A stretch of 64,000 nucleotides of DNA from Eledone cirrhosa. Its lineage: Eukaryota. Positions 15,144 to 57,830 of this stretch are shown in pieces. Position 1 is the stretch's first letter, and every line of letters starts with the position of its first letter. The notes below the pieces were generated by a model that searched no databases, had not been told where the DNA came from, and was given only the letters and a program-made list of their open reading frames with translations. The stretch lies in NCBI GenBank assembly GCA_964016885.1, contig OZ024742.1, positions 356,438,001 through 356,502,000 of the forward strand, written 5' to 3'. The position numbers were made by a program, and so were the translations under genes.

Positions 15144-15655
15144 TATATATATATATATATATATATATATATATATATATATGTGTAGAGGTTCTATATA
15201 TATATATATGTATATGTATATATATATGTATATATATATATGTGTATATGTATATATATATATATATATGTATATATATATATGTATATATATATATATA
15301 TATATATATGTATATATATATATATATGTATATATATATATATATGTATATATATATATATATATATATGTATATATATATGTATATATATATTTATATA
15401 TGTATATATATGTATATATATGTATATATATATGTATATATATATGTATATATATCTATATATGTATATATATATATATATATGTATATATTTATATATA
15501 TATATATATTTATATATATATATATGTATATATATATGTATATATATATATGTATATATATATATGTATATATATATGTATATATATATATGTATATATA
15601 TATGTATATATATATATGTATATATATATGTATATATATATATGTATATATATAT
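15144..15655. repeat. Imperfect (TA)nTG microsatellite
   Basis: Seen directly. Confidence 0.95.
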
Positions 15656-15735
15656 TAGAATTGGAGCTTACGGTCTTCAAAATGCTTTTAATTAAGCATA
15701 AAGTGTATTGCAAAATACATTATATATACATCCGT
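15655..15735 (+). repeat. Fragment of HHR repeat family C with a short inverted 5' piece
   Basis: 'acggtcttcaaaatgcttttaattaagcataaagtgtattgcaaaatacatt' matches 57320-57372. It is preceded by 'ttagaattggagct' from the opposite orientation of the same unit. Confidence 0.8.
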
Positions 15736-15907
15736 ATATATATATATGTATATATATATATATATATATACTTAGGTTAATAGGAGTTAGGTATTGTATA
15801 CCCGTGTCCCATTAAGGCATTGGCAGCATAATAATTAGCTCTATACTTTGGAGCAGAGTCGTATATATGATAAAGAACACAAGAGCGTCTACAACATCAA
15901 AATATTT

Positions 15908-15963
15908 TTATTGGCTCACAATGTTTCTTCCTTACGTAACCGTAGGATTCTTCAGAGCTATAA
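15908..15963 (-). ncRNA. Hammerhead ribozyme motif (PLE tail type, degenerate)
   Basis: The minus strand reads tagct-CTGAAGA-atcctacg gtta cgtaaggaa-GAAACATTGT-gagcca. Confidence 0.55.
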
Positions 15964-16276
15964 AAGGGGTTTGATTGGTGTTATGGACTCTACCAACCAA
16001 ACATTTAAGAACAAAGAGTAAAGAGAGTAAAGAGCAAAAGCAGGGGACGATAAGTCTAATTTTGGTGCGGGGGGGGGGGGTCCTTGTTTACTAGCTGTGG
16101 TCTTATTCATTCCCGGGAATCGAGTGGTTAGTGGAGCCATAGATGGGGTGGCGTCGATAGTAGGGTGCAGAGGGTGTGCAGAGGCTACACACACACAAAG
16201 GGCATACAATATATATATAACGGAGGAGAAAGTACATGAGTTAATTAGAAATGGAATAAGAGTAATAATAATAATC

Positions 16277-16400
16277 TGGTTAGAGCATTGGCCTTGCAAT
16301 CGAAAGGTTGTGAGTTCAATTCTCAGACCGGGTGATGTGTGGTTTCCTTGAGCAAGACACTTTATTTCACATTGCTCCAGTTTACTCAGCTGTAGAAATT
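16277..16400 (+). mobile_element. tRNA-derived SINE fragment
   Basis: A tRNA-like head 'tggttagagcattggccttgcaatcgaaaggttgtgagttcaattc' is followed by the SINE central domain 'tccttgagcaagacactttatttcacattgctccag'. Confidence 0.7.
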
Positions 16401-54400: not shown

Positions 54401-56007
54401 AGCATGCATATATATATATATTTATATATATATACATATATACATACAGGTACACATAGATATATGCACGTATCAGTTTAGCGGACGCTTATTATAACGC
54501 CTGCTTTGTTCGTTTGTAAACAAACTGAACAGCCTGAATTTATGCCGTACGGTGTTAAGGCAACCACGTCACCTTTTTCTTCAACACTGACACAGGACAG
54601 ATGTACTAGTTTCAAGCTTGTTAGCTATCATCAGCACCGTATACCCTTCTGCCAGATAGTTGAACGTTCGAAAGTATATACTTTCCTTATGAAAATTAAC
54701 GGCTGAGCAGCCTAATTTGCATATCGAGTGAGTTAAGTCGGTCAGGCGTACCGAGAACAGTAAGTTGTAATAAAATGAAAACGAAATTTCATTTCTCACT
54801 CTTAGTACGGCACTTACTTAAACGTAAGTATGTATGTATACGTACATACATATATGTATACAGACGTACAGTAGCATGCATATATATTTATATATATATA
54901 TATATATATATACATATACACATACAGGTACACATACATATATGCACGTATCAGTTTAGCGGACGCTTAATTATAACGCCCGCTTTGTTCGTTTGTAAAC
55001 AAACTTAACAGCCTGAATTTATGACGTACGGTGTTAAGGCAACCACGTGACCTTTTTGTTCAACACTGACACAGGAACGATGTACTAGTTTCAAGCTTTT
55101 TAGCTATCATCAGCACCGTATACCCTTCTGCCAGATAGTTGAACGTTCGAAAGTATATACTTTCCTTATGAAAATTAACGGCTGAGCAGCCTAATTTGCA
55201 TATCGAGTGAGTTAAGTCGGTCAGGCGTACCGAGAACGATAAGTTGTAATAAAATGAAAACGAAATTTCATTTCTCACACTGCCGTACTAAGAGTGAGAA
55301 ATGAAATTTCGTTTTCATTTTATTACAACTTATCGTTCTCGGTACGCCTGACCGACTTAACTCACTCGATATGCAAATTAGGTTGCTCATCCGTTAATTT
55401 TCATAAGGAATTTATATAATTTCGAACGTTCAACTATCTGGCAGAAGGGTATACGGTGCTGATGATGGCTAACAAGCTTGAAACTAGTACATCGTTCTTG
55501 TGTCAGTGTTGAACAAAAAGGTGTCGTGGTTGCCTTAACACCGTACGGCATAAATTCAGGCTGTTCAGTTTGTTTACAAACGAATAAAGCGGGCGTTATA
55601 ATAAGCGTCCGCTAAACTGATACGTGCATATATGTATGTGTACCTGTATGTATATATGTATATATATATATATATATATATATATGCATGCTACTGTACG
55701 TCTGTATACATATATGTATGTACGTATACGTACTTACTTACGTTTATGTAAGTGCCGTACCAAGAGTGAGAAATGAAATTTCGTTTTCATTTTATTACAA
55801 CTTATATATATATATGTATATATATATAGGTATATATATATATATATATATATATATAAATATATATATATATATATATATATATATATATATATATATA
55901 TATATTTATACATATATATATATATATATATATATGTATATATATATATATGTATATATATATATATGTATATATATATATAGGTATATATATGTATATA
56001 TATATAT

Positions 56008-56926
56008 TTCGTTTCTGAATTTGTTTAGAAAGATTCTTTATCTGAAATCGTGTGTTGAAACCGATGTTGTTATACTGTGGGAGGGTCATGTTGCCAATAA
56101 GAAACACACGCACTAGTTGCTTTCACTTCAAATTATTATAATAAATTTATAATAAATTTATAAATTTATAAATTTCTGGTTCGTTGGTTGGTTCTACAAC
56201 CAGATAGTTGTTTATATATTGTTATAGTTCTTTCGTCACACACTCTGTGACCTCTTCAGTGACTGGGGATTCCTTTTTTTGTTTCTGTGCCTCTCCTTTG
56301 TTCTGTCCTACGCCATTTTGTTTCTGTGTGTGTGTTGTGTGCTCAGTCTGCGCATGCGCCACATCCGGGTGTCTGTGTGTGTTTATGTTCATTTATTTAT
56401 TTGTTTATTTACATGTTACTGGTTGGTTGTTTGTTCTATGTGTGTGTGTGTTTTCATTTTGTCCTTAATTTTAAGTTGTGATGTTGCTGTTCCACTCATA
56501 TTTACCATTTAATTTTGGTTGTAATTCTTTTATGTTTATTGCCTCTGTAATTTGTCTAAACATTGCGTCTTTTCTGTGTGTAGATTCTATTTTTATTTCT
56601 ATGTTCTCTAATTTACCCTTGTGTTCTATTTTAGCATGTCGGTAGAGTACAGATGATTCTTTACTATCTTGAAGGTCTCGCCAGTGTTCATTTATCCGTT
56701 CTCCTACACTACGAGCTGTCTCACCTATGTACACTAACTTTTTGTCTCTACATTGTCCTTCAGTACATCTTATGCTATACACTACATTTCTAGTTTTGCA
56801 GTTAATATGGGGGCTTATTTTACAGGTTATACATTTCTTATCTATAGATGAGGGTCTTTGAAAAGGGTATGTCTTGCTAATAAGTGTTTTTACGGAGGTA
56901 CCTGGTCTTTCTACTATCTTAATATT
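56008..56926 (-). mobile_element. 3' fragment of another PLE: GIY-YIG endonuclease (56471-~56920) and 3' region with an HHR-like motif at ~56221-56264
   Basis: KKCITC..NCKTRNVVYSIRC...VYIGETARSVGERINEH...RQITEAINIKELQPKLNGKYEW. The minus strand also reads CTGAAGA-gGTCACA gagtg TGTGAC-GAAAGAACTA. Confidence 0.85.
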
Positions 56927-57385
56927 GCTATTGTTTTAGAGTAGTGACAAATTCACTTACTTTAATCTCAGCAAGAGTCACCACTGTAAAACAATAGCAT
57001 ACGTTCTTCAAAATGCTTTTAATTAAGCATAAAGTGTATTGCAAAATACATTATATAGACATCCATATATATATATTGCTATTTCAGAGCTCCAATTCTA
57101 ATTTTTAATTTCTGCCTGACCAACAATCGCTCTGTATAATCAGTTCCTGATTATTTACTAGAATTCTATAAGAATATAACATCAGTAATCTCAGTAGACA
57201 GGAGGGGTAGTTAGCCTTGATAAGCTTCAACAAAAGCGAAACAAGGCTTTGTCGGCTTATCTCCCCTTTTTGCTGAGATCAAAGTAAGTGAATTTGTCAC
57301 TACTCTAAAACAATAGCATACGGTCTTCAAAATGCTTTTAATTAAGCATAAAGTGTATTGCAAAATACATTATATACACATCCAT
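56927..57385 (+). repeat. HHR repeat family C: 319-bp unit x~1.3 with an inverted 5' piece (56927-56975); HHR at 57213-57257
   Basis: agcc-TTGATAA-GCTT caacaa AAGC-GAAACAAGGCTTTGTC-ggct. Homologous to 17898-18578. Confidence 0.85.
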
Positions 57386-57787
57386 ATATATATATATATA
57401 TATATATATATATATATATATATATATATATATATATATATATATATATATATATATCTATATATATATGTATATATATATATATATATATATATATATA
57501 TATGTATATATATATATGTATATATATAAATATATATGTATATATATGTATATATCTATATATATGTATATATATTATTTACGTATCGAGAAAGAGAAAA
57601 AAAGGGGGATAGGTGATACATATAGTTATTTGCCAAGTAGCGTATGCCAAAGGTGCTCGATACTAGTGCCGGCAGTATTAAATATTCGAAGTGTTAATAT
57701 TTAGTGGGCTAGAGAGTTAGCAGAGCGTAAGCACGTGGGAAAGTAAAAAATCGGAGAATAGACCGTTAAAACATGTTTATTTAAAAC

Positions 57788-57830
57788 AGCACCTACGTAC
57801 GTTTCGCCCAGTTGGGCTTCTCAAGGGCAT
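57788..57830 (-). ncRNA. HHR variant (U3:A8 core), probably in an inverted PLE terminal repeat
   Basis: The minus strand reads tgccc-TTGAGAA-GCCCA ac TGGGC-GAAACGTACGTA-ggtgc. Confidence 0.65.

Follow-up and report, generated by a model that had tools for sequence, protein, structure and literature searches.

Introduction

Metazoan retrozymes of the non-LTR kind (LTR, long terminal repeat) are described as non-coding tandem monomers with one type I hammerhead ribozyme per unit, both dispersed and arrayed, that co-occur with Penelope-like elements (PLEs) (Cervera and de la Pena 2020, PMC7229834; Li, Clavereau and Pollet 2026, preprint 10.64898/2026.07.22.740005). Mobilization of these retrozymes by PLEs has already been proposed (PMC7229834, PMC7761336, 10.64898/2026.07.22.740005), on the basis of shared ribozymes, co-occurrence and similarity to the pseudo-long terminal repeats (pLTRs) of PLEs. 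Here, we analyze three repeat families of this kind, termed A, B and C, in a 64,000-nucleotide stretch of Eledone cirrhosa DNA (GenBank assembly GCA_964016885.1, contig OZ024742.1, positions 356,438,001 to 356,502,000; hereafter, the window) and across the genome. The three families share the features listed above, and what links them to PLEs is the structure of their insertion junctions, with no pLTR similarity among the matches listed; the words 'junction', 'tail' and 'head' occur zero times in the main text of the 2026 preprint. Monomers of A and B are longer than the 170–400 nt given in PMC7229834 and lie inside the 51–972 bp range of the preprint.

Insertions of endonuclease-containing (EN+) PLEs carry an inverted, 5'-truncated copy and, optionally, a tail of 30–40 bp (PMC8557442, PMC3846280). 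The insertions described here resemble them in the head-to-head inverted 5' copy, the tail at one end only and the targeting of (TA)n, and differ from published EN+ PLEs in being non-coding ribozyme repeats, in following a counted rule of one long and one short end, in the longer tails of several families and in having non-nested arms. The anole Poseidon element PAc has been shown in vitro to cut both DNA strands, and two internal reverse transcriptase (RT) start sites define its tail (Frangieh et al. 2024, PMC11167929). As with PAc, both strands of AT-rich DNA would be cut and extended in our case; ribozyme cleavage is dispensable in PAc. No start-site difference between strands was seen for PAc (PMC11167929), whereas the genomic pairs reported here almost never reuse one site. 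Finally, non-autonomous PLEs of the Chlamys group are known in Chlamydomonas, for example MRC1 and Chlamys-N4 (PMC8557442, 10.1101/2022.05.23.493040). Like A, B and C, they are non-coding, often multicopy head-to-tail and located in microsatellites, and they are moved by PLEs, as we propose below; unlike the present families, for which no shared end was found, they generally share the 3' ends of their partners, and most Chlamys elements lack canonical hammerheads.

In the accessible main-text literature on non-LTR retrozymes, we found no description of inverted junctions or tails. The component parts are already known; the junction evidence is new. The pattern is genome-wide, the window being a single crowded instance of it. 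We report that A, B and C, as read from the genome sequence, are non-coding tandem hammerhead repeats inserted into (TA)n as two head-to-head arms, one with a long and one with a short end, and that they were likely written in trans by a Penelope-like RT-endonuclease.

Results

Three families of tandem hammerhead repeats

The monomers are arranged in tandem, head-to-tail, and measure 458–480 nt (A), 470 nt (B) and 319 nt (C); positions within them are numbered from the predicted ribozyme cleavage site. Every unit carries a type I hammerhead motif, read from the sequence as a core, stems I and II and a palindromic stem III. A and B have a CTGATGA core, which lies on the minus strand in the window, and C has a U3-A8 core, a known variant of PLE ribozymes (PMC4209133). 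Among anchor matches, chance ones included, the commonest core contexts were CTGATGA in A (67/95) and B (115/187) and TTGATAA in C (116/139). A and B are related to each other, and their stems I and II stay paired despite different letters. The units hold no protein-coding frame, as just two low-complexity frames of at least 120 amino acids overlap them within the window. Copies are dispersed on many contigs, with 2254 (A), 923 (B) and 1203 (C) first-look candidates. On every feature testable in DNA, the three families match animal non-LTR retrozymes.

An Rfam scan yielded, among the 150 of 483 rows listed, microsatellite-driven microRNA matches below cut-off and was thus uninformative. Single-strand folding of six short stretches, whose alignment was poor, gave no full hammerhead fold, which is expected for minimal motifs with a palindromic stem III. 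When two restriction-site-associated DNA sequencing runs with the same species label were mapped to one C monomer, the family and its tandem joint appeared in both: 71 and 70 reads crossed the joint at exactly 319, TA-rich loose ends stood at the C short end in 406 and 390 reads, and there was one opposite-strand joint (4 reads). A separate 310-nt repeat forms inverted tandem arrays of 100% identical units at L271:4763–6857 and L279:1–2037.

We oriented A, B and C by their hammerhead motifs and PLEs by their coding frames. The hammerhead-based orientation is supported by the fact that the motif lies on the coding strand in both PLEs where it is readable.

Inverted arms are polarized to the 5' side genome-wide

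An original prediction, made from the window sequence alone, had listed seven elements, both PLEs and ribozyme repeats, with an inverted piece on the 5' side. The arrangement was confirmed in 7/7 cases, with 5' ends meeting centrally and 3' ends pointing outward. We then sampled loci genome-wide, where the first samples were taken from the 40 best-scored candidates per family and hence lean to young, long copies. A same-family inverted arm was present at the 5' side in 28/39 C, 29/39 B and 15/24 A loci. Family B had been described as lacking such a piece, which is correct within the window and incorrect for the genome, given these 29 B loci.

Across the window and 285 further loci, every close junction between opposite strands was head-to-head (A, 19/19; B, 27/27; C, 33/33), giving 79/79 same-family junctions when pooled (binomial, 3e-24). 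Four PLE families behaved similarly, with 44/46 close junctions head-to-head and 2 tail-to-tail; counts for the reference N2, which extended into flanking repeat, were left out. A wider test on 378 loci, allowing gaps of up to 400 bases, gave 127 head-to-head versus 2 tail-to-tail pairs for A, B and C, thereby bearing out the predicted polarization, and both tail-to-tail pairs were gapped (32 and 315 bases). Tail-to-tail neighbors were detectable by this method, with 14 found between different families. Inversions were not equally frequent around unrelated repeats: a long interspersed element (LINE) that targets (TA)n and carries a 604-codon frame showed 0 inversions at 17 visible 5' junctions (13/30 loci ran off the edge), and 101 copies of a short interspersed element, 34 of them TA-flanked, included one head-to-head and one tail-to-tail pair. 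The 5'-end polarity of the inversions is real and genome-wide.

Insertions pair one long with one short 3' end

The outer 3' ends are fixed. C arms end at 142 or 168–175, B arms at 226–232 or 300, and A arms at 233–243 (sometimes 182) or 301. PLEs of the window, described below, likewise have long and short ends, at distances of 35 nt (PLE2), about 59 nt (PLE3), about 133 nt (PLE1) and 153–160 nt (Hydra-type pLTR). In a sample unselected for end type, 23/26 C insertions combined a long with a short end (p 4e-5). Pairing was less clean in A, where 8/12 insertions were long plus short and 2 more paired the long end with the 182 end. Complementarily, we picked loci by their short end only, using the first 30 exact matches out of 263 (C), 151 (B) and 11,190 (PLE3). 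The partner end was long in 20/26 C, 18/24 B and 19/23 PLE3 resolvable loci, none of which had a partner with a short end; 4, 6 and 7 loci, respectively, ran off the edge.

This long/short end pair matches the published PLE 'tail'. As a second PLE hallmark next to the inversion, the fixed ends strengthen the view that the ribozyme repeats and PLEs share one insertion signature.

As side observations, family C shows an apparent left-right bias of its long ends, and PLE arms standing head-to-head with C at L266:4657 and L269:4510 have the same final seven letters as the C long end, maybe by AT-rich chance.

The two arms of an insertion share variants and probably a template

At diagnostic sites, arms of the same insertion rarely disagreed (B, 2/247; A, 1/42; C, 2/26), compared with mean between-locus disagreement rates of 0.33 in B and 0.44 in A. 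Arm pairs also carry private differences of 0–5%, and their junction overlaps by a median of 2–3 bases. Even when the previous tandem unit was allowed for, neither arm was contained in the other in 15/38 C, 15/32 B and 6/21 PLE3 insertions, about 40% overall. Shared variants together with non-nested arms fit a single template primed from both DNA ends.

These data also bear on the best-surviving alternative, in which a single priming event is followed by fold-back, the first cDNA or an antisense template priming itself as proposed for Penelope (PMC3846280). Such copying would account for variants common to both arms; moreover, in 18/38 C, 13/32 B and 15/21 PLE3 insertions the short arm lies wholly within the long one, and near-perfect hairpins occur at several PLE3 junctions. 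Simple fold-back could make these insertions, and may be the source of some events, but it cannot make the non-nested ones, such as that at 15655 of the window, where a 15-nt arm (154–168) stands beside an arm covering 62–142. As an explanation of the whole pattern, we regard it as improbable.

With regard to the template, 87/102 C and 64/84 B arms cross the cleavage site, in samples that lean to long arms, and 5' ends showed no significant pile-up at that site (p 0.11 for C and 0.07 for B). A circular or an uncleaved multimeric RNA would therefore fit.

The window holds a pile-up of insertions in (TA)n

The contig that contains the window measures 379 Mb, in an animal genome of 3.0 Gb that is rich in AT. 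Between 15.6 and 60.2 kb the window holds a pile-up of elements inserted within (TA)n tracts, and a common (TA)n target is most simply the reason for the crowding. The arms of families A, B and C are:

15655..15669, minus strand: family C inverted arm, 15 nt, monomer positions 154–168, exact stop at the long 3' end
15665..15745, plus strand: family C main arm, continuing into (TA)n from its short 3' end (142)
17898..18392, minus strand: family C arm of about 1.5 units, short end at left
18392..18578, plus strand: family C inverted arm with the long end (173), matching its partner arm at 176/186 positions
26418..27345, minus strand: family B, two 470-nt units with the long end at left; the core of the minimal type I hammerhead motif is at 27218
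27591..55281, minus strand: family A array, short end at left, interrupted by PLE2
55281..55805, plus strand: family A inverted arm, long end (301)
56926..56974, minus strand: family C inverted piece of 49 nt that lacks a canonical end
56977..57395, plus strand: family C main arm, U3-A8 hammerhead motif with cleavage site at 57253, short end

The 28-kb A array obeys the long/short rule, with its short end at 27591 and its long end at 55805. It comprises about 52 units by length estimate, with 46 exact stem III anchors. Higher-order periods, with long TA tracts recurring about 4.3 kb apart, and a unit divergence of about 5% suggest that it expanded after insertion. The C piece at 56927 is inverted at the 5' side, as predicted; it is not a clean case, being joined to a 5'-truncated PLE (56005–56925) and lacking a family end.

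At 14940–15144 and 17725–17836, the window holds two more related families on the plus strand, with a CTGATGA hammerhead core, that terminate in (TA)n. Incidental copies of these two families gave 5 and 4 head-to-head pairs and 0 tail-to-tail pairs.

The PLE-derived features of the window are:

18740..22832, minus strand: PLE1 main arm, 5'-truncated, long 3' end
22316–22852, of the minus arm: PLE1 endonuclease fragment, Hydra-type, CxCX5C linker
22832..26006, plus strand: PLE1 inverted arm, whose 3' end is the short one (by about 133 nt)
33308..33637, minus strand: PLE2 inverted arm, located in one of the TA tracts of array A, with the short end (by 35 nt)
33633..36624, plus strand: PLE2 main arm, 5'-truncated RT plus GIY-YIG frame of 533 amino acids, CX4CXXC linker, long end
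near 36440–36480, coding strand: PLE2 U3-A8 hammerhead motif
56005..56925, minus strand: PLE3 3' fragment with its long end at left, fused to family C at its 5' break
56471–56935, minus strand: PLE3 GIY-YIG
57580..57901, minus strand: pLTR of a Hydra-type PLE, inverted, with the long end and a U3-A8 hammerhead motif
57901..60245, plus strand: coding fragments of Hydra-type PLEs from two families, with a fusion point at 58825 and without the 3' end

The two PLE1 arms are identical at 1266/1276 and 785/797 positions (two non-repeat stretches), and the short end recurs in loci L242 and L349; no hammerhead motif was found in PLE1. The PLE2 arms are identical at 326/330 positions. PLE2 and PLE3 combine RT with a GIY-YIG endonuclease at the C terminus in a single frame (Pfam RVT_1 and GIY-YIG, partly below cut-off), the Pfam matches of the PLE2 frame being weak and below cut-off, and their CX4CXXC linker alone prompts us to name them, provisionally, Neptune/Nematis-type. 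Among the terminal repeats, a coding-strand hammerhead motif could be read in PLE2 and in the 57.6-kb pLTR, and only a core and stem II in PLE3. Elsewhere in the genome, long open PLE frames span 777 codons (L283) and 833 codons (L280), and one PLE protein has its best named relative in Octopus vulgaris (62% identity).

The element near 57.9 kb had been labeled Naiad-like, with a junction at 57830. The junction actually lies at 57901, and the label is not supported. According to PMC8557442, Naiad elements have an N-terminal GIY-YIG domain and no canonical hammerhead, whereas the pLTR of this element carries a hammerhead motif and the second fragment has a 92% relative, L267, with the endonuclease placed downstream of the RT. 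By the motif list in the same source, Hydra-clade features comprise RWK in the frame at 57833, DKT at about 59025, CxCX5C in PLE1 and the (TA)n target; for the 57.9-kb element, RWK, DKT and the downstream endonuclease of the relative fit the Hydra clade. The short end of its family lies about 153–160 nt inside the 57580..57901 piece. The fusion at 58825 falls mid-frame, and the second family starts at the identical point in L267.

The original prediction had also taken the locus as physical evidence of an autonomous PLE with a non-autonomous ribozyme-RNA parasite. The shared signature and the tail ends speak for this idea; the locus itself is no such system, and no full-length PLE lies within the window.

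In the remainder of the window, a LINE occupies 61506–64000 (minus strand); its family, which served as the LINE control above, is found almost always within (TA)n and has a short tandem motif at its end. Frame fragments like those of an LTR retroelement (protease, RT, RNase H-like, integrase) lie on both strands at 5019–8666. Positions 60245–61506 form a 1.26-kb complex TA tract whose polarity flips near 60585, from TATATG-type to CATATA-type units.

Discussion

We propose that a PLE enzyme would cut both strands of a (TA)n tract and that each DNA 3' end would then prime a cDNA on one RNA, or on RNA of one source copy. Judging from the ends, one cDNA would begin at the long start site and the other at a short site 26–70 nt upstream. 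Both would extend toward the 5' side of the RNA and through the ribozyme site, on a template that may be a circle or an uncleaved multimer. They would halt at scattered points and then join through the few bases of microhomology seen at the junctions; if the second end fails, a single arm would result. The 28-kb A array was probably enlarged later by unequal exchange.

Besides fold-back, A, B and C could represent detached terminal repeats of undiscovered autonomous PLEs, moved in cis as truncated ends. Xenopus retrozymes do resemble pLTRs (10.64898/2026.07.22.740005), partial tandems are normal in PLEs, and the flanks examined here span just 1.5–2.5 kb. However, 0 A, B or C arms stood in register after a PLE 3' untranslated region in the 102 first-sample loci, the sole same-strand coding join (L087) is mid-frame, and arms extend through repeated whole monomers, which leaves this explanation quite improbable. 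Very improbable is an origin after insertion, by inversion at fragile (TA)n or by two independent insertions in one TA tract. While (TA)n in this genome region holds many nested elements and 14 tail-to-tail neighbors of different families occur, the arms are separated by no TA tract and overlap by only those 2–3 bases; strict polarity, the long/short rule, shared variants and the lack of inversions in a LINE with the same target all argue against it. Assembly or read-chimera artefacts deserve hardly any credence: palindromes beside microsatellites are hard to assemble (PMC8557442), but a fold-back product should have identical arms continuing into the flank, whereas the observed arms differ by 0–5%, each stop at a family-specific site of their own and are bordered on the outside by unrelated sequence.

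Several observations weigh against trans mobilization by a PLE as we propose it. A same-family partner arm was missing in 30/102 first-sample loci (11 C, 10 B, 9 A). The pooled counts of one long and one short end per insertion (C, 38/40; B, 32/32) are partly forced by the way loci were picked. Tails of A and B (60–70 nt) and of Hydra-type PLEs (130–160 nt) exceed the published 30–40 bp, the shared-variant figure for C draws on just two diagnostic sites, and circle and multimer templates fit alike. Moreover, comparing A, B and C with seven PLE-type references revealed only simple-repeat similarity among the matches listed and pointed to no partner PLE. The best partner hint, B 276–296 against the PLE3 end, had an E value of 0.32 and was rejected.

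Composite insertions could in principle point to the partner. Eight repeat/PLE composites were present among the 102 first-sample loci. Five are head-to-head with another PLE-type arm (L011, L034, L059, L093, L111); three-part or same-strand composites are window 56005–57395, L087 and L117. L022, with an A relative, comes in addition. In L111 a PLE3 short arm meets a B long arm, and in L268 the short arm of a PLE3 relative meets an A long arm. Conceivably, a PLE dimer loads the long template site at one DNA end and the short site at the other and occasionally copies two RNAs, in which case window 56005–57395, L111 and L268 would be single events joining a PLE RNA and a ribozyme circle and would name the partner enzyme; we consider this unlikely. 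The composites pair families inconsistently, and the 90 short-end loci contained no PLE3 arm with a retrozyme partner and one C arm joined to an old, decayed PLE (L360). Given this inconsistent pairing and near absence, nested insertion followed by deletion is at least as good an explanation, and a simpler one.

The footprint described here bears on the movement of animal retrozymes and on the origin of the inverted ends of PLEs. It provides junction-level support for mobilization of retrozymes by PLEs, gives, for three short non-coding templates, the exact RNA coordinates at which the two start sites are predicted, and argues that many inverted arms were primed separately rather than by fold-back. 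The in vitro assay already available for PLEs is suited to testing both the predicted start sites and separate priming.

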